In this document: positions 9,409-62,639 of the stretch, one piece after another | Layout of the letters: every line of letters begins with the position of its first letter | Position numbering within the stretch: the first letter of the stretch is position 1 | Source: Halobacteriovoraceae bacterium | GTDB taxonomy: Bacteria; Bdellovibrionota; Bacteriovoracia; Bacteriovoracales; Bacteriovoracaceae | Length of the DNA: 64,000 nt | Direction of reading: 5' to 3' | Assembly (NCBI GenBank): GCA_963719505.1 | Contig: CAVRCF010000005.1 | Coordinates: 704,001 to 768,000, forward strand | Notes under the pieces: model-generated | Told to the model about the DNA's origin: nothing | Databases searched by the model: none | The model's input: only the letters and a program-made list of their open reading frames with translations | Position numbers and translations under genes: made by a program

Positions 9409-9426
9409 TGTGTAGATATCTACACT
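9409..9426. promoter_or_regulatory. TGTGT-N8-ACACA palindrome copy (TGTGT AGATATCT ACACT)
   Basis: Contains the perfect 16-bp palindrome GTGTAGATATCTACAC; between divergent starts 9333 and 9507. Confidence 0.7.
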
Positions 9427-9506
9427 AAATAACCATTCCTTGGCCGAGAGAATATGTTTATTCTCAGGTAATATTAAGTAACAAACTTAAACCAAAGGAG
9501 ATCATA

Positions 9507-9716
9507 ATGAACAACGATCAATTAGAAGGAAACTGGAAAGAATTTAAAGGGAAGATCCAATCGAAGTGGGGCGAACTTACTGAAGATGAGATGGATAAAA
9601 CCCAAGGTAATTTAGACCAACTAAGCGGTAAAATACAAAAGAAGTTTGGAGATTCGAAAGATGAAGTACATAAGTATTTTAATTCAGTACTAGAATCATT
9701 TAATAAGAAAAACTAA
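9507..9716 (+). CDS. csbD: CsbD/YjbJ family stress protein
   Basis: MNNDQLEGNWKEFKGKIQSKWGELTED is the typical CsbD signature. Confidence 0.92.
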   Translation: MNNDQLEGNWKEFKGKIQSKWGELTEDEMDKTQGNLDQLSGKIQKKFGDSKDEVHKYFNSVLESFNKKN

Positions 9717-9725
9717 GAGTATATA

Positions 9726-10235: not shown

Positions 10236-10242
10236 GAGACAT

Positions 10243-10515
10243 ATGAACAATGAACCAAGAAGAAAAAAGCCTGAGATTGATACAACAAGGCCAAATAAGC
10301 CAGAGATAAAACCAGGTGAGAAAGCGAATAACCCTGAAATTAAACCTCATACACCTGATCCAGAAATAAAACCTAACAACCCTAGGCACCCAGAGCCAGA
10401 GATCCAACCTAATCCAAGACCCTCTCAGCCAAAGCCTGAAATTAAGCCAAATCCGACACCTTCTCAGCCTAAGCCGGATGTAAAGCCTAATCCAGGGCCT
10501 AAACGAAAAATTTAA
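10243..10515 (+). CDS. Pro-rich low-complexity repeat protein
   Basis: AGGAG RBS; about 7 imperfect (K)PE(I/V)KP-type repeats. Confidence 0.65.
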   Translation: MNNEPRRKKPEIDTTRPNKPEIKPGEKANNPEIKPHTPDPEIKPNNPRHPEPEIQPNPRPSQPKPEIKPNPTPSQPKPDVKPNPGPKRKI

Positions 10516-11291
10516 TATATTAGGAAGCTTACTTTTTTATTTGATTTGGAAAACTCCAAGGTTGAAGACTCATACCATTCCCCATCGAGTTTAACTGATA
10601 TATTTTTATCTGATTTGACCTTAAGTTCAGTTAGATAGTGCACTTCTATCTCATCCCTTGCATCAATTTCGTCATTAAATGTAAGCTCTGAAATTGCTTG
10701 GATTGAGCTAAACATATTGCCGTCATTGCAAGATAGAAAACTGAAATCCTCTCCGAAGGAAGAAGTATAGGAGGGGTTAACTCTTATTCCACCGCCGGCG
10801 TATAAACCTTGAGAGACAACAAAACCACAAGTATTAATGTCCTTTGTTTCTCCATCAAGTTCTACTGAGACTTTAATAACATTATCGGAAAACAATTTCT
10901 TTAACCCTGATAAATAATAGGATAATTGCCCTATGGTCTTTTTCATACCAGAGTCCGAATCTTCAGTGATTTCAGCAGGTGCACCACAAGTTGCAACATT
11001 TATAAAATATCTGTCATTCAACTTCATGATGGGTACTTCAATCGAGGTATTTCTTTTTAAAATTCTATCCACTCTAAGGGCGTCTAGCTGAGGCATCGAA
11101 CCAAAAATTGACTTTGCAAAGTCATTAGCAGTTCCCATTGGAATATATATGACCTTTGGGGTAAAGTTAAAATTAAACTTATTAATGAAGTAATTTAAAC
11201 TGCCGTCACCGCCAATAATAACAAAAGGATCTTCAGTAGAAGTATACGTACTTGATTCATCGTACACCTCTACTGAGTAACTACTTTTCAC
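10512..11291 (-). CDS. Diacylglycerol kinase family lipid kinase (YegS/DgkB-like); true start probably further upstream
   Basis: GGDGS, IPMGTANDFA, YFINVA, YAGGG, LDGE motifs. Confidence 0.85.
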   Translation of the reverse strand: MKSSYSVEVYDESSTYTSTEDPFVIIGGDGSLNYFINKFNFNFTPKVIYIPMGTANDFAKSIFGSMPQLDALRVDRILKRNTSIEVPIMKLNDRYFINVATCGAPAEITEDSDSGMKKTIGQLSYYLSGLKKLFSDNVIKVSVELDGETKDINTCGFVVSQGLYAGGGIRVNPSYTSSFGEDFSFLSCNDGNMFSSIQAISELTFNDEIDARDEIEVHYLTELKVKSDKNISVKLDGEWYESSTLEFSKSNKKVSFLIY

Positions 11292-25552: not shown

Positions 25553-26373
25553 CTCTCCAAAGCAGCTGACCGATCCACAACGGGTCTTTGAATATTATTG
25601 TCTCGAAGGACCCTATTTCCTCTGGTGGTGATGTCGGTTAAAAAAGATTTCTCATATTTTACATCTAAAACGTACGCCTTCACACTCACCTTCACGACAA
25701 AGGTGTTAGATATGGCACTTTCTTCAAATACGAGAGACACTTTCTTTTTCAAATAAACGAAACGGGAAGTAATCACAACTTCATGTAAAAGTTTATGAAC
25801 ATGATCTAAGTTTTCGAAGATGGAAACATAGAAAGTTGTCACAACCATCATTTGCAGGGCGCCAGAGTTTCCCGATGATACAACATCAGTTAAAAACTTA
25901 GAGTTTGGAATCGTGATAAGATTATCATCAAGTGTGTTGAGTCTTACTGATCTCAAACCGATGTTGACAATCTCGCCGTAGTTATCTTCAAATTGAACTC
26001 TGTCTCCTACTTGAAATGGCCTATCAAAAAGTAAAATAAATCCCGCGATAACAGAGCCGACCAAATCTTTGAGTGCAAAACCAAATGCAACAGCAGCCGA
26101 GCCCCCAATACCTACGAGCAGCTCTCGACTCGGTTGGAAAACAAAATAAAACACGCCTAAAACACCAATAAGATAAGAGACAAAAGATAAAACGGTGGTT
26201 AATTGTAAGATAAGAAGTCTTTTACCTGAAAATTTTTCTTGAAGTTTAGCTGACCAAAGATTGAGAAGCCTTACACCTGCCACAATACAGAAAACAAGAA
26301 ATACAAATAAAAAGATCTTATCTATGTTGAGAAAGTTAAAAATTAAAACTGAAATATCGTTACTAGTTTCCAT
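25549..26373 (-). CDS. Small-conductance mechanosensitive channel (MscS family)
   Basis: GFALKD, DRPFQVGDRV, GEIVNIGLRS, ITIPNS. Confidence 0.9.
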   Translation of the reverse strand: METSNDISVLIFNFLNIDKIFLFVFLVFCIVAGVRLLNLWSAKLQEKFSGKRLLILQLTTVLSFVSYLIGVLGVFYFVFQPSRELLVGIGGSAAVAFGFALKDLVGSVIAGFILLFDRPFQVGDRVQFEDNYGEIVNIGLRSVRLNTLDDNLITIPNSKFLTDVVSSGNSGALQMMVVTTFYVSIFENLDHVHKLLHEVVITSRFVYLKKKVSLVFEESAISNTFVVKVSVKAYVLDVKYEKSFLTDITTRGNRVLRDNNIQRPVVDRSAALES

Positions 26374-49667: not shown

Positions 49668-51116
49668 TTGAACGTCATGTTGGATAATACTATTGCTTCA
49701 ATTAGTACCTACTCTGATCTTATTATTTTTTTCGCGTATACCAGCATCGTGGCAATTCTCATCTACTATTTTTTTATTAAGCTGCACATGAAGTTGAATT
49801 TATTTTTCATCTCCTTCAGCGGATTTATTCTGGTGAGTGGGTTAAACCATTTAGCCATATTCTTAAATAGCTTCAACGACGTTATTTTCCTCGTTTCGAT
49901 TCTGAAAATATTAAAAGCTTTTACAGCTTTATTGGCAACTGTAACACTATGGCCTTTTGTCAGAGATGCTCTCTACTTAAAAAGTCTCACAGAGAATGAA
50001 AGACAGAAAAGAGACCTCAAGATCTTCAAAGAAGCCTATGAAGATGCATCAATTGGCTTGGCGCTCCTAGATAAACAAGGACAACTGCTGAAAGCCAACA
50101 AAGAGCTCATTAGACTTTTTGGTTATGGTGAGGAATATACTCTTCACAGCAACATATACAAATTTATTAATAAGGTTGAAGCCAAGAAAAACGAAGATCT
50201 GTTTAAAAAGATCTATAAAAGCTCAGATGAGGTCTTTGATTTTAAATTGAAGTTTGTTAAAAATTCTGGCGAGGATTTTTGGGGAAAAGTTCAGCTTAAA
50301 GTGCACAGGAAAGACTCTGGTGAAATCGACTTTATTTCTGTCCAGATTACCGATATAACCAGAGAACTCGAAATTGAAAAAGAGCTTCAACGAGAGAGGG
50401 TAAATGCCGAAAATGATAGAAAGCTCGAGTATCTAAAAAGTATGGCTTCAAGTGTAGCCCACGAAATAAATAATCCTCTAACAATCATCAGTGGAGCGGC
50501 ACAAATCATTGAGATTCTTCTAAAGAAAGAAGATATCGATAAAGAAAAAATAAACCAAGAGATTAAAGATACAACTGAGTCGGTGTTAAGAATATCTAAA
50601 ATTATAAAATCTCTCAAGATGCTCTCTAGTGAGAAAAAAGAGCAACTTGAAAGCATACCTGTCTCCTCTATTTTGGACAATGTCATTGAGCTATGCCAAG
50701 CAAAGTTTGTTTCAAACGGCGTCACATTTGAAGTGACACAAGATGAAGGTATCTTTTTGAAAAAAATTAACTGCAATAAAATGCATATGTCACAAGTTTT
50801 AATTAATATGCTAAACAATTCTTTTGAAGCTCTTGAGAACTTAGATGAAAAATGGATAAATATTAAGGTCTATCAAAAAGAACATTCAATAGTCTTCGAC
50901 ATAGTAGATAGTGGTCATGGTATAAATGAAGAAAATAAAAGCAAAATATATCTTCCATTTTACACGACAAAATCTCAAGGTGAGAATGCTGGTCTTGGTT
51001 TGAGCTACTCAAAGTCAGTCATTCAAAATTACAATGGATCTTTAGAACTAATTGAAGATAAAAATACAACCTTTAGAGTTTCACTTCCCTTTGAAAGTGA
51101 ATTAGAAGTCGCCTAA
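49668..51116 (+). CDS. Sensor kinase with ethylene-receptor-like 3-TM N-terminus, PAS and HisKA/HATPase
   Basis: SDLIIFFAYTSI / FSGFILVSGLNHL; PAS; AHEINNPL, DSGHGI, GLGL. Confidence 0.8.
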   Translation: MNVMLDNTIASISTYSDLIIFFAYTSIVAILIYYFFIKLHMKLNLFFISFSGFILVSGLNHLAIFLNSFNDVIFLVSILKILKAFTALLATVTLWPFVRDALYLKSLTENERQKRDLKIFKEAYEDASIGLALLDKQGQLLKANKELIRLFGYGEEYTLHSNIYKFINKVEAKKNEDLFKKIYKSSDEVFDFKLKFVKNSGEDFWGKVQLKVHRKDSGEIDFISVQITDITRELEIEKELQRERVNAENDRKLEYLKSMASSVAHEINNPLTIISGAAQIIEILLKKEDIDKEKINQEIKDTTESVLRISKIIKSLKMLSSEKKEQLESIPVSSILDNVIELCQAKFVSNGVTFEVTQDEGIFLKKINCNKMHMSQVLINMLNNSFEALENLDEKWINIKVYQKEHSIVFDIVDSGHGINEENKSKIYLPFYTTKSQGENAGLGLSYSKSVIQNYNGSLELIEDKNTTFRVSLPFESELEVA

Positions 51117-51545
51117 AAGTTTTTCGTACTCAGAAACTAAACTGTCTGGATCATCACTTGACTGTTCTTTGGCTTCAAAGTTCTGTGACATTCCTCGAGT
51201 CACTGCACTCAGAAGATTTCCAAAGTGTGGCTTGTCGACAAAATCAAATGCACCATACTTAACGGCTTCTTTAACAAGGTTATCATCTCCATGGGAAGTG
51301 AAGAAAATAAAGGGGACTTCATTTTTTTTCTTTCTCACCTCTTTAACAAAATCAATTCCATTCATAACGGGCATATTGATATCGCTAACAACACAGCTAA
51401 TTCCTGGTTCCAGGGCCATCTTATCCAAAGCCTCTTGCCCATTGATGGCCGTAATAATACTCTCAACTTCCGAAGAAAGAATAGTTACTAGCTTATCCAA
51501 AATTTTAATCTCATCGTCGACGATAAGAAGAGTTTTTACTGACAT
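51102..51545 (-). CDS. Receiver domain protein
   Basis: IVDDE, SDINMP, FFTSHG, VDKP. Confidence 0.9.
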   Translation of the reverse strand: MSVKTLLIVDDEIKILDKLVTILSSEVESIITAINGQEALDKMALEPGISCVVSDINMPVMNGIDFVKEVRKKKNEVPFIFFTSHGDDNLVKEAVKYGAFDFVDKPHFGNLLSAVTRGMSQNFEAKEQSSDDPDSLVSEYEKLLGDF

Positions 51546-51728: not shown

Positions 51729-52586
51729 ATGAATATTATTGAACCTCAGCAAAGGGTGACACCGATGCTTGTTTTCATAGGAGCTTTGATAGTGGATGGT
51801 GCCCATGTGTATTCAACATTATTCGTCACTTACTTTGATTCAAATATCAAAAGTAAAATTAAACTTCATTTGATCCTGGCCCCTTTGTTGACAATTTTGA
51901 TCTGCTATCTTCTTTATATTTATGAGTTTAAAGCCTTACTTCTTTCTTTAGTAGGAAGCTTTGCTCTTTTTCATTTCATTCGCCAAGAAGCTGGCTGGAT
52001 GAAATTAGCGGGAAGGCTCGACCCGAAGCAGCCGCAAATTCTCAATAAGGTAGATCTCTTTACCTCTTATATCTTTACGATAACTCCCGTTTTATATCTT
52101 ATATCAGAGAGGAATCGTGGCTTTTGGCTCTCCAGAGGAGATCTTCCTATCATCCCAAACCTTTACTGGGACACTGGGAAATACATAATGCTTTTTACCG
52201 GTTTGGTTTGGCTTGGCTTTAATATAAGACACTGGAGAAAAACCAAACTGATTAACGGCTCGAAACTTTTAATCATTCTTAGTAATCTCGCTGCTTGGTT
52301 TTTCGCCCTAACTTATCTTGCTGGATCTTGGCTAGGACTCCTTCTCATAATCCTCCCTCATGGAGTTCCCTACTTCTTTTTGGTCGCAAAGGAGCACAAT
52401 AAAAAATCTCCAAATAAGTTAACAATTTATCCTTTTCTATACCTACTTTGTGTTTTGTTATATTTTTTTGAAACAAGAGTTGGTGGTCTTAAAAATCCAA
52501 TATTGACATCAATTGCGATAATGCCTCAAATAGTTCACTACTATCTGGATGGAATCATTTGGAAGAGATCAATCCAATCTCGCTAA
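51729..52586 (+). CDS. Polytopic membrane protein with four conserved-looking His motifs
   Basis: About 8 TM; DGAHVYST, HFIRQ, HGVPY, HYYLDGIIWK. Confidence 0.75.
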   Translation: MNIIEPQQRVTPMLVFIGALIVDGAHVYSTLFVTYFDSNIKSKIKLHLILAPLLTILICYLLYIYEFKALLLSLVGSFALFHFIRQEAGWMKLAGRLDPKQPQILNKVDLFTSYIFTITPVLYLISERNRGFWLSRGDLPIIPNLYWDTGKYIMLFTGLVWLGFNIRHWRKTKLINGSKLLIILSNLAAWFFALTYLAGSWLGLLLIILPHGVPYFFLVAKEHNKKSPNKLTIYPFLYLLCVLLYFFETRVGGLKNPILTSIAIMPQIVHYYLDGIIWKRSIQSR

Positions 52587-52732
52587 GCAACTGTTTTTAC
52601 TTATAGCCAGAGTAAATTTGGCTAATTTCTTGATTCAATATTGAACAATATGCTACCTTTAAGTATAAACAAAAGTTTAATAAAATATAATCAGCACAAA
52701 ATCCACCCAAGTTTGTGACAGGGTGCTTTAAT

Positions 52733-52819
52733 GTGGATAAATTTAAAGAGTTTTTTGGTGAAATTAAAGTCACAATTCTAGATTTAGATCTTGAGGCACA
52801 AGATGATGCTGGAACATAA
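52733..52819 (+). CDS. Putative precursor peptide A1, 28 aa: MDKFKEFFGEIKVTILDLDLEAQDDAGT
   Basis: GTG start; shares the EFFG-x-I-x-V-xxx-DLD motif with the downstream repeats; weak RBS. Confidence 0.5.
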   Translation: MDKFKEFFGEIKVTILDLDLEAQDDAGT

Positions 52820-52842
52820 TAAAAGTACAATAAGGTAAATGC

Positions 52843-52965
52843 ATGAAAGAGTTAGAAGACTTTTTTGGAACGATTGAAGTCAATCAAGTAGATCTCGATG
52901 AAAACGACTTAGAGATTTTTGCCAATATGGCGGCTGAAGAAACTCTAGAGAAGGCAATTGAGTAA
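52843..52965 (+). CDS. Putative precursor peptide A2, 40 aa: MKELEDFFGTIEVNQVDLDENDLEIFANMAAEETLEKAIE
   Basis: TAAGG RBS 7 nt before ATG; clean ORF; near-identical to A3. Confidence 0.75.
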   Translation: MKELEDFFGTIEVNQVDLDENDLEIFANMAAEETLEKAIE

Positions 52966-52993
52966 AACTGAAAAAATACAATAAGGCAAAACT

Positions 52994-53116
52994 ATGGAAG
53001 AGGTAGAAGATTTTTTTGGAACGATTGAAGTCAATCAAGTAGATCTCGATGAAAACGACTTGGAGATTTTTGCCAATATGGCGGCTGAAGAAACTCTAGA
53101 GAAGGCAATTGAGTAA
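52994..53116 (+). CDS. Putative precursor peptide A3, 40 aa: MEEVEDFFGTIEVNQVDLDENDLEIFANMAAEETLEKAIE
   Basis: TAAGG RBS 7 nt before ATG; differs from A2 by K2E, L4V and two synonymous changes. Confidence 0.75.
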   Translation: MEEVEDFFGTIEVNQVDLDENDLEIFANMAAEETLEKAIE

Positions 53117-53144
53117 AACTGAAAAAATACAATAAGGCAAAACT

Positions 53145-53281
53145 AATGAAGAGTTAGAAGAATTTTTTAGAACATTAGAACAATTGAAGTCAATCAAGTA
53201 GATCTCGATGAAAATGACTTGGAGATTTTTGCCAATATGGCCCTCGAAGAGCCAACAAATAAAGAACTTTCATTTGAGTAA
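53145..53281 (+). pseudogene. Degenerate precursor peptide copy A4 (...TIEVNQVDLDENDLEIFANMALEEPTNKELSFE)
   Basis: Same RBS context but the ATG is out of frame (ATG AAG AGT TAG); 8-bp tandem duplication TTAGAACA; distinct C-terminus. Confidence 0.65.
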
Positions 53282-53296
53282 CCTCGGAGAAAAGAA

Positions 53297-53572
53297 ATGA
53301 ATAAAACATACTCTTTAAATCCAAGTCTTTTCTTCTCATCAAATGATGAAAAGTTAAATATTATTAGTCTAGAAGATAAGAATAACGAAGTTATATCTTT
53401 AACGAAAGTAAATGCTCTTATATTTCCAGATATCGTGGATGGAAAAACCCAAAATGAAATTCTTGAAAAAGTTAAAGCTCTACCCGACTGCCCGGAAGAG
53501 AAGGAAGTTGAAAAATATTTGTCTAATTTTCTCGTAAAATTAGAAGAATTGAACGTTATTGTTCCCAAATAA
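53297..53572 (+). CDS. Stand-alone PqqD-family / RiPP recognition element (RRE)-like protein
   Basis: 91 aa; three short beta-like segments then helices (ISLTKVNALIFPDIVDGKTQNEILEKV...EVEKYLSNFLVKLEELNVI), typical PqqD layout; GGAG RBS. Confidence 0.75.
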   Translation: MNKTYSLNPSLFFSSNDEKLNIISLEDKNNEVISLTKVNALIFPDIVDGKTQNEILEKVKALPDCPEEKEVEKYLSNFLVKLEELNVIVPK

Positions 53573-54782
53573 AATCTTTCAAAAGAAGTTGAATAAATCG
53601 GCTCACTCCATCAATCGAATGTTGATCAGCATCAAGTCCAGAAAAGCGAAAACAACTATTTGCTTCATTGGTATTAGAATCCTCAAAAGCTCCTAAAAGA
53701 CATGAGTCCAGCCCAAAACTCGTGCCCCAAAAAACGGGAAGTTCAGCTTTTGCTTTGAGTTTATTAACTCTTAAGGCAAAATTCTCATCAGTTGATTTTA
53801 TCTTGATGAGCGAAAATAGCTCATGATGGACATTTGTTCTAAACGGCTTATGACCATGCTTAAGCACATTCACCTCTATATCTTTAAGATTTTTTTTGAA
53901 GCGCCCTACTCTTTTTAGGTTGAGATGATGATATTTCTCACTCCAAAAGAATGGAAGTATATTCTCTAAATTTGAAAATCCCCCATAACGTCCAAAATAG
54001 CGGTGAAAGAAATTTTCTGCACTCTTGTCTCTTTTTTCTTTAAAGCGATCAAAGTATTGAAGATTAAAAGCATAAAGACTTCCAAGTTGAGCATACTCCT
54101 CTCCAAAAGAGTCAGTCTTAATAAGACTCTTTATGATAAAAACAGCCGCACCTGAAGACTTAAGTTTTATAAAAACTTCTTTTTCAAGAAGTGAGCCTGT
54201 TAAAAGACAAGTCGCATCGACAACAATAATATCGTACGCTGAAAAATCAAGCGCCTCATAAGTTGAAGTCTCAGAAACACTATAATCAAGTATTAAGCAT
54301 CGATCTCCACCGCTTTGATCTTTCTGTTCTAAAGACTTAATAACTTTATTTGTGTCAAAATAAATGGACGTCACAGGTCTTACAAACTCAATATTAGTAT
54401 CGATTGATGTAACAAAAGTCAGCACGATCGCCATTGCACCTTGAGCGCTAGAGGTGAAAGCGGCAAACTCCTCACCACCGCCAATATCAACCAAAGAGTG
54501 GGGATGAATAAAACGAAACTTATTATCTCCCATAAACCTATACCCTTCCCTTGAATAAGTATAAGAGATGTTCTGACCATAGAAGTTGAGCGGCTTATTC
54601 ATCAGATTCGTTGTTGGAAATTCTATCTTATCGATTGCCTCTTTTCTGATGTGTCTAAAAAGATATTTTTTGGCAACTCTAATGTCTTCTGCACAATGAA
54701 CGGGATGAAGAGATGCCTTTACGCCAGCAAACGTACACAAATAGTCAATTTCCTCTCTTTTAGACTCAATATAGGATGACAC
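53556..54782 (-). CDS. Divergent PLP-dependent fold-type I enzyme (Cys/Met metabolism-like)
   Basis: FTSSAQGAM, VVDATC, KSLIK(TD) candidate Schiff-base Lys, GTSFG; GTG start with GGAG RBS. Confidence 0.55.
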   Translation of the reverse strand: MSSYIESKREEIDYLCTFAGVKASLHPVHCAEDIRVAKKYLFRHIRKEAIDKIEFPTTNLMNKPLNFYGQNISYTYSREGYRFMGDNKFRFIHPHSLVDIGGGEEFAAFTSSAQGAMAIVLTFVTSIDTNIEFVRPVTSIYFDTNKVIKSLEQKDQSGGDRCLILDYSVSETSTYEALDFSAYDIIVVDATCLLTGSLLEKEVFIKLKSSGAAVFIIKSLIKTDSFGEEYAQLGSLYAFNLQYFDRFKEKRDKSAENFFHRYFGRYGGFSNLENILPFFWSEKYHHLNLKRVGRFKKNLKDIEVNVLKHGHKPFRTNVHHELFSLIKIKSTDENFALRVNKLKAKAELPVFWGTSFGLDSCLLGAFEDSNTNEANSCFRFSGLDADQHSIDGVSRFIQLLLKDFIWEQ

Positions 54783-54811
54783 ATATTCTCCGTAGATTTA
54801 AAATATCCTAC

Positions 54812-56497
54812 ATGAATCATAAAACAAAAACTGAACTCTTTGTAGGAATAAATTTGGGTCATCATGATGCAAGCTGTTGTGAACTCGATACAGCTTCTCA
54901 AAGTTTTACTATTTATGAAGAAGAAAGACTCTCAAGAGTTAAAAGTAGAGGGTTTTATCCCTTTTTATCTGTCAACCAACTTCAAAACTCTTCCTTCTCA
55001 AAGCTCGATAACAAACAGGAAGTAAAAGTTTCCTTCTCTAGCTTTATGACTGATATTGAAAAATCTTGGGAACTTTCTCAAAAGAAGAAAGAAGCTTCCT
55101 TTATTCTTCTCAACGAGAATTTTCAACCTAAGAAAATCTCAAAAAGTATAATCCATCATGAAGCTCACCTCTTTTCAGCCCTACCTCTTGTAGATACGAG
55201 CGCTGACTATCTTGTCGTCGTTGCTGACGGCTGTGGCAGTAACCTAGATGATCTAGAACTCCACTCTTTTTTTGATCAAGATACTTCTCAAGCGGAGGGC
55301 TATGAAATGATCTCAGCTTATTCTTGGCGGCAAAGATCACTAGAACAAGTGGATAAAAAGTGTAGCCTTCTGTATTGGAAGAAAAATAAAAAGGACTCCT
55401 TCTATCCAGCTTCATTTTTTACCAGTGCAGCTAAAATCGTCTTTGGAGATTGGAAGCATAGTGGAAAAGTCATGGGTCTTTCCGCTTACCACACCGGTGA
55501 GCTTTATTCTCGAGACGAGCTTTTTGATAAAATGTACAACGCCGAGGTTCCTGAAAAACTTGATCCGACGGCTTTTGATAATTTATCCGACCCCATTCTT
55601 AAAGAAAAACAAAAGATTTGTGCCAGTGTTCAGTACTACTATGAAGAGTTTATGTTCGAATACCTTGAGACTTTACAAAAAAAGACAAAGCTAAAAAATT
55701 TAATCTTAATTGGTGGCTGTGCTCTCAATTGTGTTTTTAATGAAAAGCTCAGAAAGAAAAAAATCTTTGCAAATATTTATGTCCCACCATGGCCAAATGA
55801 CGAAGGGATCTCTTTTGGTTCCACAGTGGCATCCTACTACAATGAAAACGCAAAACTCCCTCTTATTAAAAACACGAAGTCTCCCTTTAGGGGAATGAAT
55901 TTTCAATATAGCGAACGTGATATAATAGAACAGTTTAAGGATTATACAATTGAGCCTTTTAATATTAATACAGTTGTCGAGCTATTTATCAAAGGTGAAG
56001 TTATCGGTTGGTATGAAAATCAAAGTGAATGTGGACCACGGGCCCTTGGTCATCGCTCCATTTATGCTGACCCCTTTAAAGCCGGGATAAAAGACTTTCT
56101 TAATAGTAAGATTAAATTTAGAGAAAACTTTAGACCTTATGGATGCTCCATCTTAGAGGAGGACCAAAGCCTATTCTTTGAAGATCACCAAGGACTCAAC
56201 TCCCCCTTTATGTCATTTGCCCCCATAGTCTTAACTGAGCAAAGACAAAGGCTCAAGGAGGTTATACATAAGGATCAAAGTATACGAATTCAAACTGTCG
56301 ATGACACGTTTGACGGTTTAAAAAAGTTCTTAGAAAAAATTAAAGAAAAAAGAGGAAATTCTCTCATTATTCATACAAGCATGAATATTAATAAGATGCC
56401 CATTGTAAATTCCATTCATGATGCAAAGGAATTCTTTGCTAAAAGTAATATCAAATACATGGTCTTTAATGACTACTTAATCTCAAAGCCTGTATAA
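54812..56497 (+). CDS. Carbamoyltransferase, NodU/CmcH/TobZ family
   Basis: HHDAS, EEERLSRVK, HHEAH, DGCG, GKVMGLSAY, GGCALNC, ECGPRALGHRS, KFRENFRPYG, TSMN; ATG 54812 preferred over 54776. Confidence 0.93.
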   Translation: MNHKTKTELFVGINLGHHDASCCELDTASQSFTIYEEERLSRVKSRGFYPFLSVNQLQNSSFSKLDNKQEVKVSFSSFMTDIEKSWELSQKKKEASFILLNENFQPKKISKSIIHHEAHLFSALPLVDTSADYLVVVADGCGSNLDDLELHSFFDQDTSQAEGYEMISAYSWRQRSLEQVDKKCSLLYWKKNKKDSFYPASFFTSAAKIVFGDWKHSGKVMGLSAYHTGELYSRDELFDKMYNAEVPEKLDPTAFDNLSDPILKEKQKICASVQYYYEEFMFEYLETLQKKTKLKNLILIGGCALNCVFNEKLRKKKIFANIYVPPWPNDEGISFGSTVASYYNENAKLPLIKNTKSPFRGMNFQYSERDIIEQFKDYTIEPFNINTVVELFIKGEVIGWYENQSECGPRALGHRSIYADPFKAGIKDFLNSKIKFRENFRPYGCSILEEDQSLFFEDHQGLNSPFMSFAPIVLTEQRQRLKEVIHKDQSIRIQTVDDTFDGLKKFLEKIKEKRGNSLIIHTSMNINKMPIVNSIHDAKEFFAKSNIKYMVFNDYLISKPV

Positions 56498-57615
56498 CTA
56501 GAATATACTTCGCGATAGAGAGACTTTCCACTTTTTTTCCTAAAGGGAAAGCTTTTGCGATAGGTTTTAGAAAAAAGACGAAAAGTTTGGCTTTGCCCTA
56601 AGTACTCATTTTTTTGCTGAATGATTTCACTTATTTTAAGATTAAAGGATTCGTACGATAGCTGTGTTGAAAGATCGTGATCAACGATACTATTCACTCT
56701 CCCTTTCAAGCCCATAAGTGCGCTTAAAAGATTCTTTTTATTTATTCTTGGAATGAGATCTTCATCAACTTCTACGCCAACCATATCTGAGAAATCATTA
56801 TAAGCCCCATGCCCTCCCCAGTTGCTTAACACCAGTTGGTGCCCTTTTAAAAAGCCCTGGGCAATGCTTACGCCAAAATCTTCATCGTGGTAGGTACTCA
56901 TTGAAACCGAGTACTGACAGTTACCCATCACTTGTTCAAGAGAGCCTTGCTCTAGACTTCCATGATACTCAATTCCTCCATCTGACTTTTTAATCAAAGA
57001 GTAAAAAGTATCCTTAAAAACATTCATATCAACTTTATAGCCATGAAGATGATAGCCCCTATCGTGGAAATCTCCAGCTATATGAAGCTTTAACTGAGAA
57101 TTAAAACGTCTCGCATTGATAAAGACACTCATGAGTTCAAGAATATTTTTTTGAGGAGTTAACCTTCCTGCATAAATGAGACTTTTTCCCGCTGATGAAG
57201 TCACTATTGAAGGTTTCATAGGATAAGGAACAATATGACAAGCACCACTTTGAACCAAGCTTTGAATCTGATCTTTTGATCTTGGGCTGGCCGCAAGAAG
57301 TGAGACATTTTCTCCAAGTAAATTGTCTCCAATATAATTCCAGCGATCAAGTTCTACTGTCATATTTCCATAGACCGGTAAAATAAAATGATTTTTTTTA
57401 CCTAAAAGAGCGGAAAGTGAATCTTGCCACTTAAAATGGTCTGACATAAAAAATATATCTGATTCTGGCAAAATTGAATCAACCTGGGCGGGATCAATAT
57501 AATGAACTTCAAATGGAGCGCGATCAAGCGCCTCACAAATATACTTTTGAATGATATTACAACTAAGCCAGAAATGATCTTCATCCACTTTTAAGACATA
57601 AAGTTTATTCTTCAT
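56473..57615 (-). CDS. Glycosyltransferase, GT4 (GT-B fold)
   Basis: IYAGRLTPQKNI, LHIAG, EDFGVSIAQ, SNWGG; ATG 57615 overlaps the upstream stop. Confidence 0.85.
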   Translation of the reverse strand: MKNKLYVLKVDEDHFWLSCNIIQKYICEALDRAPFEVHYIDPAQVDSILPESDIFFMSDHFKWQDSLSALLGKKNHFILPVYGNMTVELDRWNYIGDNLLGENVSLLAASPRSKDQIQSLVQSGACHIVPYPMKPSIVTSSAGKSLIYAGRLTPQKNILELMSVFINARRFNSQLKLHIAGDFHDRGYHLHGYKVDMNVFKDTFYSLIKKSDGGIEYHGSLEQGSLEQVMGNCQYSVSMSTYHDEDFGVSIAQGFLKGHQLVLSNWGGHGAYNDFSDMVGVEVDEDLIPRINKKNLLSALMGLKGRVNSIVDHDLSTQLSYESFNLKISEIIQQKNEYLGQSQTFRLFSKTYRKSFPFRKKSGKSLYREVYSSYTGFEIK

Positions 57616-58690
57616 AAAGGCCTTTAAAAAACGTTGCCTTAAGTTTTTGCAAAACTTTAAAATTTTGCGCAATAATAAAGAGGTACACAAAGTTTTTCCC
57701 TGGAGGGTTTAGAAACATAAAACCATTTCGATCTCCTTTTTTATAGACAGGCCAGCGAGATTCATCAAGAGAGAATCCTTTTTTAAAACTTAATTCAAAA
57801 AATTGTCCTACTCCCGATTCAGGCAAGAAATTTCGTAACTCAGCTAAAAGCGATCCCATATTAATCCTATAATTAACTTCACACAGGGGATAAATGCCAA
57901 TGCGATCTCCATCTTTAAATAAAAAACCATCAATCGTGAGATTTTGCTGAAGATCGAATTTCTTTAACTCCTCTAGCAGACTGATAGAAGTTGAGACTGC
58001 TTTATTGTAGTCTTCAAGAGCATCTAAGGATTTTAAGTAAATATCCTTATCTTCATTCTTATCAAAAATAAGCCCACCAAAGTAGTGACCAGTCTTGTTC
58101 ATCATCGTAAGATAATCGAAACTCTCATTCGTAACTGGATTATAGTGAATTGAATAGTCAAGAATTCTCTCATAGAAAGGCTCAAGAACCTTTACCTCTT
58201 TAAAAGGCTTTGCATCGGAAGCTCTTTCAATCACTTCAAAGCCTTGTCCCGCTTTGTAGAAGCAGTTCTTTAAAAGCCACTTTCTGTTTTTAAAATCAAT
58301 CTTTTTGAGATCGTGATCGGAAGTGAGAAAGTGAAAATCTTTTGGAAGGAGATTGTTCATCTCTAGAAATTTATAAGTCCAAGCTTTGGAATTTAAATTT
58401 TTCTCCAGCTCTATATCAGTTAACTTACCATACCAGTTAACAACTCCTCTTTCATCCTTTGTGAATCTTGGAATAATAAACCCAAATCCTTTCAACTTAT
58501 CGATAAAATCCACAGAATAATCCTCTAAAACAAAGAGTTCACAGTCTGGATCTTTATTGATGGCAAAAAATAAAAATTCAGCACATCCCCACACTTCTCG
58601 ATTTCTTAAAACTCGCTCTGGACTAAAGCCAAGTTCCTGCGCAAAGAGTTCAACTTCATACTCTGAATTTACTCTATATTTGATTGTCAT
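57605..58690 (-). CDS. ATP-grasp fold ligase (unassigned subfamily)
   Basis: NSK, WLLK...KAGQG, VLEPFYER..DYS, IDGF, CEVNYRINMG. Confidence 0.7.
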   Translation of the reverse strand: MTIKYRVNSEYEVELFAQELGFSPERVLRNREVWGCAEFLFFAINKDPDCELFVLEDYSVDFIDKLKGFGFIIPRFTKDERGVVNWYGKLTDIELEKNLNSKAWTYKFLEMNNLLPKDFHFLTSDHDLKKIDFKNRKWLLKNCFYKAGQGFEVIERASDAKPFKEVKVLEPFYERILDYSIHYNPVTNESFDYLTMMNKTGHYFGGLIFDKNEDKDIYLKSLDALEDYNKAVSTSISLLEELKKFDLQQNLTIDGFLFKDGDRIGIYPLCEVNYRINMGSLLAELRNFLPESGVGQFFELSFKKGFSLDESRWPVYKKGDRNGFMFLNPPGKNFVYLFIIAQNFKVLQKLKATFFKGLYEE

Positions 58691-59694
58691 AGAAAAACGA
58701 TATCTGCTTGATCGATTCCGTTAAAGGAATGATTCCAAGCCGTAGAGTATCCACTTACATTTTCAACGATAATATTATCACCGATGCAAATACTTAGTGG
58801 ATCTAATTGAATAGTCGCTAAAACGTCACTCTCATAGCAGCTTGGACCTGCAACCTTTAAATCTTCATTCTTTTTCTCAGTAACAGGTTTACAATGCCTG
58901 TAGCGAATTTTTACTCTGTTATCAATCCATCTAAGATGGCAAGTTGGCGACAAAGAACAAATAATCGTTTTGTTGTAAAAAGCGAGAACTTTCCCAACCG
59001 CCACGCCGGAGCTTGCGGAAATCCATCTTCCAGGCTCAAAGTAGAGGGTTGTGTTGGGAAGGTTTTGATAGGCATATTTTGTTATACTTTTGATTTCATC
59101 AAGACTCAAAGGTGCGAAGCCCCCCCCAAAATTGATAGATAAGTTTCTGTTTGCTGCTATAGAGATGAGGCGATCAATCATTTCTTCATAGTCTGTTACT
59201 TTATTTTCTAACCCTCCAAAGTGAAGGTGTAGATGTTTAATGGATGGAAACTTGGCTAAAGTATCCTCTAAGTCATTTAATTTGACTCCAAAGCGAGAAC
59301 CCTCTCCAAGGAAGTCTGTCGATACTCGTAAGGAAATATTATCAAACTTGCTCACTCTACCCAAGTCCTCGAGGCAATTGATGTCATTGACTGAATTCTC
59401 TAAAGGTGAATAAAATGGTGAAGAATTCCAAACGATCTTTTTGTCGAGTTCGGAGATCAAATTTTGCTCGTTAATATTTGAAACATCAAATCCAAAAAGA
59501 AACTGTGAAGCAAGTTTAAGAACTTCGGTATTAGGAAATGACTTCACGGGAAAAAGAAACTTAACCCTATCATTTTCAAGGCTCTTAAGACCCTCAAAGT
59601 TTGCCAGCAAATCTTTTTTAGAAAAGTAGTAACAGGTACTTCTTTCCATGCTCTCAAACTCTCGTAAACAAACCTTAGTTGATAAATACTGCAT
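58687..59694 (-). CDS. Group IV PLP-dependent decarboxylase (DAP/ornithine/carboxynorspermidine decarboxylase-like)
   Basis: FPVKS (PLP Lys), SRFG, HLHFG, NFGGGF, FEPGR, GPSCYESD, GYS. Confidence 0.88.
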   Translation of the reverse strand: MQYLSTKVCLREFESMERSTCYYFSKKDLLANFEGLKSLENDRVKFLFPVKSFPNTEVLKLASQFLFGFDVSNINEQNLISELDKKIVWNSSPFYSPLENSVNDINCLEDLGRVSKFDNISLRVSTDFLGEGSRFGVKLNDLEDTLAKFPSIKHLHLHFGGLENKVTDYEEMIDRLISIAANRNLSINFGGGFAPLSLDEIKSITKYAYQNLPNTTLYFEPGRWISASSGVAVGKVLAFYNKTIICSLSPTCHLRWIDNRVKIRYRHCKPVTEKKNEDLKVAGPSCYESDVLATIQLDPLSICIGDNIIVENVSGYSTAWNHSFNGIDQADIVFL

Positions 59695-59873
59695 TTTAAA
59701 ATTATAAGGAAACCCCGTTTTAATGGCAAGAAACCATTACCTGGTCCAAAAGACTAAATTTCAAAGGCTTAGCACTGCACAATAGTATGTAGACATAACC
59801 TTGTTTAAAGACTTTTAAAGGCCAAAGTCTAATTTATTTGCTATGGTCCTAAAAAATTAAAAGAGAGAAAACT

Positions 59874-60944
59874 ATGACAAATATAAAAATTGACCCAAAA
59901 GCCATTTCAAACCTAGAGAATTTTCAAAATCCAACAGATATTCAATTTGGAAAAACTTTAGTTCCAGCACTTTTAAAGTGTGAATATCGAGACGGTCAAT
60001 GGGGTGAGCTTGAATTCTTACCCTATCACAAGATACTCATTGATCCGGCAGCTAAGGTTCTTCATTACGCACAAGAAATTTTCGAAGGACTAAAAAGTTA
60101 TAAGAACGATGAAGATGAGGTTTTCTTATTTAGACCTGAAGAAAATGCAAAAAGATTCAATAAATCAGCAGTGAGAATGGGAATGCCTGAACTTCCGGAA
60201 GAGATCTTTATTGATTCTCTCAAGTGCTTAGTTAAGCACTCTCACCACACATTTTCTAAAGAGCTTGGAGATTCGTTTTATTTAAGACCTTTTATGTTCG
60301 GAGATGAACCTCAATTAGGTGTCAAACCATCTTCAACTTACCAATATTATCTTATTGGGGGCCCAGCAGGAAACTACTTCACAAAGCCCTCGGTGAAAGT
60401 CAGAGTTGAAAAAGAGTCCCACCGAGCATCTTCAAAAGGGATTGGAAGTGCAAAGACTGGTGGGAACTATGCTGCCAGTATGGCCGCAAATAAAGTGACC
60501 AGCGAGCAAAATTATGACCAAACACTTTGGCTTGACCCCGTCTATGGTGAGTTTATTGAGGAATTGTCAGGAATGAACTTCTTCGCAGTTATCGATGATG
60601 TTTTAGTGACACCTGAGCTTGGAAATTCAATTCTTCACGGAATAACGAGGGCATCACTTCTAGAGCTTGCCCAAAGCTTTGGTATAAAGGTTCAAGAAAA
60701 AAAGATTTCTATAAATGAACTTATGGACCAAATAGATTCCAAAAGTTGTACAGAGCTTTTTGCATCTGGAACGGCATCTGTTCTTACTCCAATAGAATGT
60801 TTGAAACTCGACGATAGAGAAGCATTCGTCAAACATCCAAATGGAAAAATATCAGTGAAATTAAAAGAAGCCCTTCAAAAACTTCAAACAGGTCGAAGTG
60901 AAGATCCTTTTAATTGGAGACAACAGGTCGATCTTACAAAATAA
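59874..60944 (+). CDS. ilvE: Branched-chain amino acid aminotransferase
   Basis: LHYAQEIFEGLK, LFRPEEN, YLRPF, AKTGGNYA, EELSGMNFF, ILHGITR, GTA. Confidence 0.95.
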   Translation: MTNIKIDPKAISNLENFQNPTDIQFGKTLVPALLKCEYRDGQWGELEFLPYHKILIDPAAKVLHYAQEIFEGLKSYKNDEDEVFLFRPEENAKRFNKSAVRMGMPELPEEIFIDSLKCLVKHSHHTFSKELGDSFYLRPFMFGDEPQLGVKPSSTYQYYLIGGPAGNYFTKPSVKVRVEKESHRASSKGIGSAKTGGNYAASMAANKVTSEQNYDQTLWLDPVYGEFIEELSGMNFFAVIDDVLVTPELGNSILHGITRASLLELAQSFGIKVQEKKISINELMDQIDSKSCTELFASGTASVLTPIECLKLDDREAFVKHPNGKISVKLKEALQKLQTGRSEDPFNWRQQVDLTK

Positions 60945-60961: not shown

Positions 60962-61480
60962 TTAGTTATTGGGAACCCATTTTTTCAACTTCCTTTGAAG
61001 ACTCTGTCTATGAATACCAAGTTTCTTCGCAGTGTTTGAAATATTGCCTTTCTCTTTTGCAAGAATGTGTTCAATGTACTCGCGCTCGATGCGATCAAGG
61101 CTGAGCTCTCCCTCTCGAATATTGGCCTCTAATTTATTATCGATAAGGTCTATGACTTTCTTAAGATTAATCGGTTTCGTAATATAGTCAGAAGCTCCAA
61201 GCTTCATCGCCTCTACAGCGGAGGAGATAGTGCCAAAACCAGTCATCAGAAAAATCTCTGCAGCTTTAAACCTATCCAGACATGGAGCAATGAGATTAAG
61301 CCCAGAGAAATTTTTTAATCTTAAATCGATGAAGATATATTGGAAATCACCTTCAATATTTTCAATATGATGGTCGCAAATATAACGAACACTAAAGCGA
61401 CCACTATCATTTAGATCTAAGGTCAAACTTTCAGCAAATAATTCTTCATCGTCAATTATTAGAATATTTTCTTTAGTCAT
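60962..61480 (-). CDS. regA: RegA/PrrA/ActR family response regulator
   Basis: Receiver plus Fis-type HTH: EYIEHIL....GNISNTAKKLGIHRQSLQRKLKK. Confidence 0.85.
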   Translation of the reverse strand: MTKENILIIDDEELFAESLTLDLNDSGRFSVRYICDHHIENIEGDFQYIFIDLRLKNFSGLNLIAPCLDRFKAAEIFLMTGFGTISSAVEAMKLGASDYITKPINLKKVIDLIDNKLEANIREGELSLDRIEREYIEHILAKEKGNISNTAKKLGIHRQSLQRKLKKWVPNN

Positions 61481-62639
61481 CGATTATCCCTTCAAGATAA
61501 AGCTCAAGTACAGCTCCACTATTATTGTAGATATTTAGCGTTCCACCACAAGCTTCGAGCCCAAGGGCACAATTATAAAGTCCCAATCCCCTTCCTTGAC
61601 CTTTTGTCGTATTATAAGGTGCTTTAAAATTCTTTAAGATATAGTCTGAAAACCCCTCTCCTTCGTCCTCAATCTTTAGAAGAATCGAGCCATTTTTCTG
61701 AGTAAGACTAATACTAGCTTGTTTTAAATTTTCATCAATACAGTTTTGCATGCTATTTGAAATAAAAAGCTGAATGCTCAGAGCATTGGTTAAGGCAAAA
61801 ACATTAGATTGTATATTCGATTTGAAAGAAAAAGACTTTCCTTTTTGTAGGGCTAAAACTGTTGTTTCCAGAAGTTCCGACAAATTGATTCGCGTCATTT
61901 TGGCATGATCAAATCCAGACTGGGCAAGATTGAGATGATGAGTTGTCTGTTCTAATCTTTTGACACTTTTATCCAGTATATCCAAGTCGCGAGAAATAGC
62001 ATCCTCAGGTGAATCTCTAAGAAGTTTGTCTACTTTTAGTCTCACGGTATTGAGAGGTGTACCCAACTCGTGCACAATTCCTGAAACCAGAAGAGAAATC
62101 TGTCGGTTTTTTTCAAGAAGACTTCTCTTATTCTCTAAACTTCCAATCGTCTTTTGTTGCTTTAGAAAAAGAAGACCTAAACTTCTCATCGCGACCCACA
62201 TCCCTACAGTCAAAAGCACTTGTGGAACAAACGTGAACATAATAGAGGTAAAATCGTTAGAGGAACTCCAAAAGATCAAGATAATAAGAGAAAAAAGTAT
62301 AGGTAGATACAGATGATCCTGTTTTTTGGGCAAAACAAATGCGGCCATCATGATGTGAAAATAAATGAGATCCCAAAAAGGATTCTGAATTTTTCCGCAT
62401 AAAAGAATTAAAAGAATAAAAGAACACAGATCAAAAAGCAGATGAGTGAGAGCCCTGGGTTTTAGAAGATTAAACTGACATAAAATATTAAAAGAAAGAA
62501 TTCCTAACAAAGTAAGAATAACAAACGGGAGATTTTCATAAGGGAGGTAAATATACCTTATCGCGAAAGGAATCGCTAACATTTGCAATGAAAGCGCAAT
62601 CCACCTCAATTTGATTAGCCAATTCAAACTATTAATCAT
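61473..62639 (-). CDS. regB: RegB/PrrB/ActS family sensor kinase
   Basis: LRWIA, NPF, HELGTPL, GRGLGL; 6 TM; paired with the RegA-like gene. Confidence 0.8.
   Translation of the reverse strand: MINSLNWLIKLRWIALSLQMLAIPFAIRYIYLPYENLPFVILTLLGILSFNILCQFNLLKPRALTHLLFDLCSFILLILLCGKIQNPFWDLIYFHIMMAAFVLPKKQDHLYLPILFSLIILIFWSSSNDFTSIMFTFVPQVLLTVGMWVAMRSLGLLFLKQQKTIGSLENKRSLLEKNRQISLLVSGIVHELGTPLNTVRLKVDKLLRDSPEDAISRDLDILDKSVKRLEQTTHHLNLAQSGFDHAKMTRINLSELLETTVLALQKGKSFSFKSNIQSNVFALTNALSIQLFISNSMQNCIDENLKQASISLTQKNGSILLKIEDEGEGFSDYILKNFKAPYNTTKGQGRGLGLYNCALGLEACGGTLNIYNNSGAVLELYLEGIIDD

Follow-up and report, generated by a model that had tools for sequence, protein, structure and literature searches.

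The stretch of DNA analysed here, 64,000 nucleotides (nt) of contig CAVRCF010000005.1 from a Halobacteriovoraceae bacterium and called the window throughout, carries between positions 51729 and 59694 three intact genes for small acidic peptides, one decayed copy of such a gene, a gene for a 91-amino acid (aa) protein and a group of enzyme and membrane protein genes. This segment is probably a biosynthetic gene cluster (BGC) for an undescribed family of peptides made by the ribosome and modified after translation (RiPPs) that depends on a RiPP recognition element (RRE). An RRE-guided RiPP cluster as such is of a known kind; the enzyme set and the leader are new. We infer that the RRE binds the peptide leader and that the enzymes act on the peptide. 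The genome that holds the cluster amounts to 3.69 Mb in 5 contigs, is 83.5% complete and has a GC content of about 35%; its Atlas neighbours come mostly from Bdellovibrionota. Every cluster gene listed in an earlier note on this DNA is present where that note had placed it.

The reading starts from the 91-aa protein, RRE91. An AlphaFold model built on an alignment of 7 orthologs (pLDDT 85.8) predicts a three-stranded sheet (residues 11-15, 19-24 and 32-36) followed by three helices (37-47, 52-60 and 68-84). When this model was compared with the PDB by Foldseek, the top six chains were those of TbiB1 and TfuB1, lasso peptide B1 structures solved with leader peptides, with E 4.6e-5 to 1.3e-3, TM 0.77-0.87 and root-mean-square deviations (rmsd) of 1.4-1.8 A. 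The best match is TbiB1 5v1v_A (E 4.6e-5, TM 0.82/0.85, rmsd 1.5 A), TfuB1 is represented by 6jx3_B, and the 5 hits at E<=0.001 are all lasso B1 RREs. Further structural matches are the RRE domains of ThcOx, TruD, LynD, PbtF, TigE, MadB, TbtB and PqqD. The 91-aa protein is thus predicted to fold as an RRE, and superposition of the model on leader-bound lasso B1 RREs upholds the PqqD/RRE-like fold that the earlier note had proposed. An RRE profile run over the whole genome has RRE91 as its sole hit; run against PDB sequences it returns helical-repeat noise, with TfuB1 at E 1.4 only.

A2, A3 and the decayed copy lie on a 151-nt unit repeated in tandem, with copies at 52821-52971, 52972-53122 (94% identical) and 53131-53281 (63% ungapped). 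In the last of these the start codon is lost and the FFG region is broken by an insertion; its homologous frame (stop-to-stop 53171-53278) offers TTG 53219 as sole start, for an open reading frame (ORF) of 20 aa, and a 30-aa ORF at 53208-53300 runs in a different frame from the decayed copy. The four homologous peptide ORFs of the earlier note are therefore three genes, A1-A3, and one pseudogene without start codon and FFG motif. A1 is 28 aa long from GTG 52733, the more likely start, or 34 aa if GTG 52715 is used, and AAGG precedes the start of each of A2 and A3, which carry 13-14 acidic residues as against 1-2 basic ones. A peptide profile finds no match beyond this locus in the 3.69-Mb genome at E<=1.

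Across related loci, the peptides share an N-proximal motif, D[FY]xx[FY]GxI. In the looser form [DE][FY]x0-3[FYLV]Gx[IVLFC], it occurs in 22 of 23 peptide-profile hits and in 43 of 20,091 other short ORFs, a count that is descriptive only because the motif was derived from the same sequences. C-terminal to the motif lie an aliphatic/acidic stretch, an [LVF][DE][IVL] triplet and, in many cases, a patch rich in Ala. Tails range from acidic in the window to poly-Arg in loci L032, L037 and L038, and the last residue differs among the peptides (E, T, V, P, S, D, R, K or Q). For each of 10 pairs of paralogs or orthologs taken from related loci, pN is 0.06-0.26 and lies well below pS (0.23 to saturated), and dN/dS is 0.08-0.43 where it can be computed. 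By these substitution patterns, the peptide ORFs are under purifying selection and more than chance ORFs.

The signature enzyme of the cluster family, PLP408, is predicted to depend on pyridoxal phosphate (PLP) and lies below the reach of ordinary domain models. It has no direct Pfam hit, PF01053 is not reached, and PLP408 is absent from the three matches of a PF01053 scan of its own genome at E<=0.001. Word-based protein searches returned PLP408 itself and one relative at 63% identity, and with the profile three proteins were returned. With a 9-sequence profile, nothing was found against PDB sequences, and the alignment probability was 0.2 against one PF01053 protein and 53.9 against an alignment of 30 such proteins. 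A HMMER search of 1.84 billion representatives retrieved 433 relatives at E<=0.001 (clustered at 50% identity), 314 of them at E<=1e-10 and 223 at E<=1e-30. Ten of these clusters were looked up, and the 5 that had a source name were all called 'hypothetical protein'. The Atlas lead for PLP408 is PF01053, with a score of 0.94, and the Atlas hints at relatives in Pseudomonadota.

The clear relation to PF01053 came only from a 102-sequence profile of the family. Aligned by hhalign with 30 PF01053 proteins from the same genome and its relatives, this profile gave Prob 92.2 and E 6e-7 over 205 columns, in a register that pairs S219-x-x-K222 with the S-x-T-K PLP-lysine motif, DTTC with DNTF and Y-x-Y-Q-R with Y-E-Y-S-R. 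Against the PDB at E<=1, 18 of its 21 hits are cystathionine beta-lyase, cystathionine gamma-synthase, cystathionine gamma-lyase or O-acetylhomoserine sulfhydrylase (CBL/CGS/CGL/OAHS) enzymes, the best at E 0.0058. Among the 102 members, Y76, D166, D189, S219, K222, G234 and R379 are invariant, and R78, Y141, E143, T191, C192, H220, D224 and others are more than 90% conserved. In the cystathionine family, the Y-x-R, Asp, S-x-x-K and C-terminal Arg positions hold PLP and the alpha-carboxylate of the substrate; in PLP408 the same roles presumably fall to Y76-x-R78 (phosphate motif), D189 (pyridine-N Asp), S219-x-x-K222 (PLP lysine) and R379, by assignment from solved family members, and Y141 is a further hallmark of the gamma-family. 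Judged by these profile alignments, PLP408 is a remote relative of the fold-I gamma-family PLP enzymes, below the PF01053 threshold, as the earlier call of a fold-I PLP enzyme had suggested. Because the residues for PLP and alpha-carboxylate are kept, PLP408 should handle an alpha-amino-acid moiety, the kind of group that the decarboxylase DC335 of the same cluster needs as well.

Whether these genes belong together can be judged from their company in other genomes. Of 401 genomes sampled from the whole phylum, 14 have a match to the PLP profile; of 237 genomes of the taxonomic family, 26 do (9 of 69 genera), and so does none of the 3 other genomes of the window's genus (82-90% complete). Twenty-six PLP-centred loci (408 kb) were drawn from Bacteriovoracaceae and two neighbouring families: the cluster half of the window and, from 25 other genomes, stretches of at most 20 kb about the match. 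Matches at the ends of contigs in G488 and G494 were omitted, as was a second one in G524. They were set against 36 control stretches (258 kb) consisting of the rest of the window, 5 loci with paralogs of the cluster protein AG361 and 30 PF01053 loci. Presence was scored by tblastn at E<=1e-3, by an RRE hidden Markov model (HMM) at E<=1e-3 and by a peptide HMM at E<=0.01. The RRE profile hits 20 of the 26 PLP-centred loci, the carbamoyltransferase CarbT is found in 17, the peptide profile and the decarboxylase in 14 each, the GT4-type glycosyltransferase (GT) in 13, the membrane protein Mem285 in 9, a 2-oxoglutarate (2OG)-Fe(II) oxygenase in 6 and an iron-dependent alcohol dehydrogenase (Fe-ADH) in 3, and each of these in 0 of the 36 controls. 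ATP-grasp genes are present in 4 of 26 loci and in 5 of the controls, namely the paralog loci. Seven RRE hits and 8 peptide-bearing loci had served to build the profiles, leaving 13 RRE hits and 6 peptide-bearing loci as independent. All absences give lower bounds on presence because many contigs are short (4.8-12 kb).

Within the 20 RRE-bearing loci, the RRE gene lies within 30 nt of the carbamoyltransferase gene on the same strand in 11 and of the PLP gene in 4, and peptide genes are adjacent to it in 14. Gene order and orientation vary among loci, protein identities are 22-40%, and locus GC spans 0.34-0.60, which is unusually broad in composition for a single GTDB family. The gene set is conserved as a set, then, in rearranged order: RRE, peptides, PLP enzyme, carbamoyltransferase, decarboxylase and GT are found together in other genera, and the synteny check that the earlier note proposed favours its reading. 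Wider profile scans of genome and metagenome contigs gave no locus beyond those already sampled.

CarbT573 scores 166.6 bits with PF16861 (5e-49) and 69.5 bits with PF02543 (4.5e-19), for cut-offs of 27 and 24, the PF02543 N-domain match covering the last 74 positions only. The HHxxH, DGxG and C-terminal GRSECGPRALGNRS motifs are conserved in the 6 cluster copies, and H127, H128, H131, D151 and D342, the His/Asp metal site, are invariant in them. It is clearly a full-length member of the NodU/CmcH family by these scores, in agreement with the earlier note, and not a NodU equivalog (NCBIfam 128.7 against a cut-off of 1000). DC335 matches the NCBIfam models lysA (4.3e-12) and nspC (4.4e-10), both far below the equivalog cut-offs, and is not a LysA or NspC equivalog; PF02784 reaches 25.2 bits for a cut-off of 23.4 with no single stretch passing, and PF00278 gives 18.2, below 23. 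The motifs FPVKSFP, HxHxG, NLGGGF, EPGR, CYExD and SGY are conserved in 7 cluster copies; DC335 keeps all catalytic motifs of the ornithine/diaminopimelate (Orn/DAP) decarboxylases, and its designation as a decarboxylase is confirmed by this conservation. The GT falls short of the PF00534 cut-off (23.7 bits against 26.4), and a profile of 4 cluster GTs matches the mannosyltransferase WbaZ-1 (2f9f_A, GT-B fold) at E 8.8e-6 over 86 residues.

Two further genes are accessory. The AG361 model (pLDDT 88.3; Foldseek E 1.9e-11) gives a VIA Z of 26.1 to 3wvq_A (rmsd 3.5, 327 aligned residues), which we take to be PGM1, the pheganomycin ligase. Next come 8ynd_H, an 'ATP-grasp peptide ligase' (23.8), BesA 8yi6_A (23.4) and SAOUHSC_02373 (22.2), and the following ATP-grasp group, PurK (18.2) and biotin carboxylases (about 18), lies about 5 Z units below the first three. 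BesA/PGM1-type ligases join the carboxylate of an amino acid to an amine. Because its nearest structures are of this type, AG361 is placed with the amide-forming amino-acid/peptide ligases, and its predicted fold is that of a three-domain ATP-grasp enzyme, as had been claimed. Of the Lys and E-x-N-x-R metal/ATP motifs, a Lys together with D254, N273 and R275 is conserved in the 8 sequences of the family; AG361 itself matches no Pfam ATP-grasp model, and 1 of the 8 members matches PF14397 at 0.0034. Paralogs of AG361 (23-32% identity) occur in 15 of 24 family genomes searched and form an uncharacterised ATP-grasp family without a Pfam model. At five such loci, L012-L016 (G007, G016, G020, G022 and G021), the homolog lies near 9400-10800 in a different, conserved neighbourhood, with an ORF of about 275 aa and one of about 850-970 aa on one side in 5 of 5 (536 aa at the L012 contig end) and an ORF of about 205 aa on the other side in 4 of 5. 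In at least 8 genomes, paralogs lie about 5 kb from a housekeeping PF01053 gene.

Mem285, the second of these, has at least 6 hydrophobic segments, and D23, H26, H82, R85, Q86, H211, H270, D274 and W278 are invariant in 43 family sequences; these four invariant His bear out its description as a His-motif membrane protein. The family profile has no PDB or Pfam relative and no NCBIfam match, and the 267 relatives at E<=0.001 are all 'hypothetical'. The family is unstudied and probably one of metal-binding membrane enzymes. It is widespread, with members in Chitinophagaceae, Hymenobacter, Chryseobacterium and Flavobacterium (Bacteroidota) and in Leptospira, including L. interrogans. That the ATP-grasp and His-motif membrane proteins belong to the cluster, as the earlier note had it, holds for their identities; as members they are accessory (4 and 9 of 26 loci), with relatives outside such clusters.

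On the RiPP reading, A1-A3 would be the substrates, and D[FY]xx[FY]GxI would be the leader element bound by RRE91. RRE91 would present the peptide to the tailoring enzymes, first to the carbamoyltransferase and the PLP enzyme, whose genes the RRE gene adjoins. By gamma-replacement, PLP408 could attach a unit derived from an amino acid, for instance 3-amino-3-carboxypropyl, to a nucleophile that belongs either to the peptide or to its sugar; DC335 would remove the alpha-carboxylate of this unit to leave an aminoalkyl arm, CarbT573 would carbamoylate that amine or a hydroxyl, and the GT-B-like enzyme would add a sugar. In the variant found in the window, AG361 may use one of the numerous carboxylates of Asp and Glu to close or add an amide, and Mem285 would be an accessory in this scheme.

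The component steps have precedents. Mur24, a PLP-dependent gamma-replacement enzyme, and Mur23, a type III PLP decarboxylase, build the aminopropyl arm of muraymycin (described in passages of PMC10491745 and PMC11350588), and MccD with the N-terminal domain (NTD) of MccE does the equivalent on the RiPP microcin C, where a peptide-linked 3-amino-3-carboxypropyl group is decarboxylated (PMC11350588). The cluster likewise pairs a fold-I PLP enzyme with an Orn/DAP-type decarboxylase. Mur24 is like 1-aminocyclopropane-1-carboxylate (ACC) synthase and MccD is an S-adenosylmethionine (SAM) enzyme, whereas PLP408 is nearer the cystathionine family. For the carbamoyltransferase, excerpts of PMC13174530 describe StdF, a NodU-like enzyme of a Streptomyces RiPP that converts lysine to homocitrulline and is presented there as only the second RiPP-linked carbamoyltransferase; RREs fused to PF02543 carbamoyltransferases are reported in part of PMC12710340. 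The setting, a NodU/CmcH-family enzyme with RRE-guided ribosomal peptides, is shared, but StdF forms a fusion with an S8/S53 peptidase and has YcaO/TfuA and multinuclear non-heme iron-dependent oxidative enzymes (MNIOs) as partners, none of which is in the cluster, and the cluster peptides have no conserved Lys. The PGM1-type ligases, 8ynd and BesA are the best structural neighbours of AG361, but share 11-14% sequence identity with it, and the gene is dispensable for the cluster family.

Several findings weigh against a RiPP pathway of this form. All conserved positions of the peptides are acidic, aromatic, Gly or aliphatic, and none is Ser, Thr, Cys, Lys or Tyr; with no nucleophilic position conserved, the modified residue cannot be named. 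Of the 26 loci, 12 have the PLP enzyme but no decarboxylase, and 9 have it with neither decarboxylase nor carbamoyltransferase; the three-step scheme therefore cannot be general. Searched against Pfam and NCBIfam, the RRE91 sequence does not match PqqD (PF05402) even at E<=10. The cluster conserves neither a peptidase nor a dedicated exporter, in line with a remark of the earlier note. Gene orientations are mixed, again as it had said, and PLP408 is convergent with RRE91. Finally, the invariant R379 and decarboxylase chemistry suit a free alpha-amino-acid moiety and would also suit a small-molecule or scaffold pathway. Because no nucleophilic residue is conserved and the PLP enzyme works in clusters lacking decarboxylase and carbamoyltransferase, the chemistry as written, with its alkylation, decarboxylation, carbamoylation, glycosylation and ATP-grasp amide, is offered tentatively, by analogy, and is doubtful as a whole. 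A more specific proposal, that the leader motif, sequence-orphan RRE and hitherto unclassified cystathionine-like PLP enzyme define a new RiPP class, in which this enzyme carries out gamma-replacement on the ribosomal peptide itself or on its glycan and builds, with decarboxylase and carbamoyltransferase, a ureido-alkyl (carbamoyl-aminopropyl-like) side chain, appears quite unlikely; if true, it would be the first PLP-dependent RiPP alkylation, a chemistry known to date from nucleoside antibiotics only.

The main rival, which we judge unlikely, holds that the acidic peptides are carriers, following the logic of PEARL/3-thiaglutamate, LysW or the butirosin protein BtrI: an amino acid would be ligated to the peptide by the ATP-grasp enzyme or another ligase, remodelled in the tethered state by PLP enzyme, decarboxylase, carbamoyltransferase and GT and released as a small molecule, and the peptide recycled. 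The Arg that PLP408 keeps, which in related enzymes binds a free alpha-carboxylate, the need of DC335 for a free alpha-amino-acid moiety and the kinship of AG361 with BesA/PGM1-type ligases would all be at home in such a pathway, as would several near-identical peptide copies and the want of a conserved exporter or leader peptidase. There is also a precedent, as passages of PMC11350588 describe, in the ATP-grasp BtrJ and the decarboxylase BtrK, which act on carrier-tethered Glu. Yet an ATP-grasp gene is present in only 4 of 26 loci, no hydrolase for release is conserved, and the C-terminal residue varies, the most conserved part of the peptide being an internal 30-residue stretch and not a terminus.

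Two other explanations are very improbable. In one, enzymes of an ordinary glycan, polyamine or cell-envelope pathway stand by chance beside unrelated peptides and an RRE. NodU-type carbamoyltransferases, GT4 enzymes and Orn/DAP decarboxylases are indeed common in polysaccharide and polyamine metabolism, relatives of AG361 and Mem285 are found away from such clusters, and the genes are mixed in orientation; but chance would hardly place the RRE profile in 20 of 26 PLP-centred loci and 0 of 36 controls, or the RRE gene within 30 nt of the carbamoyltransferase gene on the same strand in 11 of 20, and the set travels together through rearrangements and a GC range of 0.34-0.60. Its absence from the 3 other same-genus genomes searched (82-90% complete) fits an accessory BGC and not envelope housekeeping. 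In the other, equally far-fetched, the peptides would act without modification, as small proteins of a signal, bacteriocin-like or regulatory kind, with the 91-aa protein as chaperone or immunity partner and no tailoring, which would sit well with the lack of a predictable modified residue and with conservation over about 30 residues, as in a folded or binding module, but not with an RRE gene in operons with enzymes, nor with a protein whose nearest structures are all RiPP leader-binding domains, domains that are not known to act outside RiPP pathways (PMC12710340, abstract).

Within the RiPPs, the cluster was compared with the classes it most resembles. The lasso B1 proteins TbiB1 and TfuB1 are alike in fold and in size (about 90 aa), and the RRE91 gene lies directly downstream of the precursor genes. 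Lasso leaders carry a YxxP-type motif, unlike the D[FY]xx[FY]GxI found here, and the lasso reading was rejected as the B2 protease, a transglutaminase-like leader peptidase, and the Asn-synthetase-like cyclase (PF00733) are absent among the window cluster genes. The graspetide (microviridin-type) reading, for which an ATP-grasp macrocyclase acting on Thr/Ser/Lys-Asp/Glu core motifs would define the class, was not adopted: ATP-grasp genes occur in only 4 of the 26 loci, and the peptides conserve no Thr, Ser or Lys; among the best 50 rows of AG361 structural matches, PGM1/BesA-type ligases are on top and graspetide cyclases do not figure. Daptide clusters, as part of PMC12338566 describes them, combine the RRE protein DapB with DapC (PF00465) and the PLP aminotransferase DapD. 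They share RRE and PLP enzyme with the present cluster, and loci L032, L037 and L038 also carry a PF00465 Fe-ADH; the window cluster, unlike them, has no PF00465, PF00202 aminotransferase or methyltransferase, only A1 ends in Thr, and the C-terminal residue is not conserved, and the daptide reading was dropped. A PQQ/mycofactocin reading was set aside as well, there being no PF04055 radical SAM hit among the window cluster genes. Indeed, the earlier statement that no class-defining enzyme (radical SAM, YcaO, LanB/C/M or lasso cyclase) is present holds for the window cluster. Literature searches of the PMC open subset and bioRxiv surfaced daptides, StdF, graspetides and RRE surveys, and in them neither the gene set nor such a cluster from Bacteriovoracaceae was found; tables of large RRE or BGC surveys may list such loci.

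Variant loci show how far the family extends. In a second architecture, the RRE is followed by a GT2, then a JmjC/DUF6445/WelO5-like oxygenase and a PLP408-like enzyme, without carbamoyltransferase or decarboxylase (L042:6170-10425, L116:5013-11131, L114:3367-8427, L115:935-4683 and L040:6544-10639); its peptides have a related DFGE motif, and those of L042 and L116 share an AYATxPCDPS tail. A radical SAM gene and a phage-type integrase lie close by in the distant locus L116. In L032, L037 and L038, all of genus g12, a 2OG-Fe(II) oxygenase lies between peptides and RRE and the PF00465 gene beside the decarboxylase. L037 and L038 add a fused double GT of about 810 aa and two tandem Mem285 copies, and the L032 contig ends earlier. 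At L034:15413-17008 (G058), a gene of the AsnB/lasso-cyclase type (PF00733 plus a GATase domain) stands in a cluster without an ATP-grasp gene and may encode an alternative carboxylate-activating enzyme. L039:6011-11084 (G086, from another family of the phylum) encodes two peptides whose leader is rich in Lys and ends in GGG and whose core is rich in Cys and Trp. They lie next to genes for a PLP408 homolog and a 2OG-Fe(II) oxygenase and to two ORFs without annotation, of 466 and 397 aa, and the locus looks like a different RiPP cluster that shares the PLP408 family. From these variants, the common denominator is a precursor, an RRE and a PLP408-like enzyme, usually with a glycosyltransferase and an oxygenase. 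For the cluster itself, the conserved core is peptide, RRE and PLP enzyme, usually with carbamoyltransferase, decarboxylase and GT; by gene content the window belongs to the branch with carbamoyltransferase and decarboxylase, has the ATP-grasp and membrane-protein genes in addition and lacks an oxygenase.

The discovery of RiPPs is driven by recognisable class-defining enzymes. Standard miners would miss this cluster because the usual ones (radical SAM, YcaO, LanB/C/M, lasso cyclase and MNIO) are absent and 4 of its 8 proteins have no Pfam or NCBIfam model: scans with both, Pfam also at E<=10, gave no match for Mem285, RRE91, PLP408 or AG361, nor for the peptides. If the peptides are tailored, the cluster would bring a new enzyme family (433 representatives at 50% identity, the named members looked up all 'hypothetical'), new PLP chemistry in ribosomal peptide biosynthesis, a third context for RiPP carbamoylation and, for Bacteriovoracaceae, a first lead to a natural product. 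The chemistry that these obligate predators secrete is, to our knowledge, almost unknown. The defined pair of leader motif and RRE is open to direct testing.

Table 1. Features of the putative RiPP cluster in the window, with coordinates counted from its first letter.
Feature	Position	Strand	Description
Mem285	51729..52586	+	accessory gene; multi-pass membrane protein with four His invariant in its unnamed family
Precursor peptide A1	52733..52819	+	divergent copy, EFFGEI motif; peptide-profile E 3e-4
Precursor peptide A2	52843..52965	+	40 aa, 13 acidic residues, DFFGTI motif; peptide-profile E 2e-9
Precursor peptide A3	52994..53116	+	40 aa, 2 residues different from A2; repeat copy 94% identical
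Decayed fourth repeat copy (pseudo-peptide)	53131..53281	+	63% identity; remnant E 0.0068, C-terminal half readable
RRE91	53297..53572	+	stand-alone RRE, PqqD-like winged helix (predicted fold)
PLP408	53556..54782	-	divergent fold-type I PLP enzyme, cystathionine (Cys/Met metabolism) relative; signature enzyme of the cluster family
CarbT573	54776..56497	+	NodU/CmcH-type carbamoyltransferase; PF16861, PF02543
GT	56473..57615	-	GT-B/GT4-like; about 380 aa from inferred ATG 57615; ORF open to 57690
AG361	57605..58690	-	ATP-grasp carboxylate-amine ligase (predicted); accessory gene
DC335	58687..59694	-	fold-type III (Orn/DAP/Arg-type) PLP decarboxylase
Promoter-like site	59701..59729	-	upstream of the DC-AG-GT operon; 11/12 consensus matches

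In the window, CarbT573 begins 1.2 kb downstream of RRE91. The coupled decarboxylase/ATP-grasp/GT4 operon described earlier is recovered as three minus-strand genes that overlap or abut: DC335 and AG361 overlap at 58687-58690, and the probable GT start, ATG 57615, compares with an AG361 stop at 57605. The promoter-like site at 59729-59701 is the best of 30 such sites and is weak evidence, because this total is not above the shuffle expectation of 25.6 +/- 4.3. A histidine kinase (HK) gene at 49668-51116 and a response regulator (RR) gene at 51102-51545 flank the cluster on one side and ilvE (59874-60944) on the other. The first two genes form a two-component system upstream, in which a PAS-HK is joined by a stand-alone receiver (49668-51545); a second such system, a RegB/RegA-like (ActS/ActR) pair (60962-62639), lies downstream, and neither is kept beside related clusters. 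The remainder of the window consists of ordinary chromosomal genes, among them gdh and those for ribosomal protein L25, ClpB, sensor kinases and PAP2; at 26363-29371 it holds a 1002-aa ORF that matches AAA_22 at 686-805 only, the rest being without annotation.

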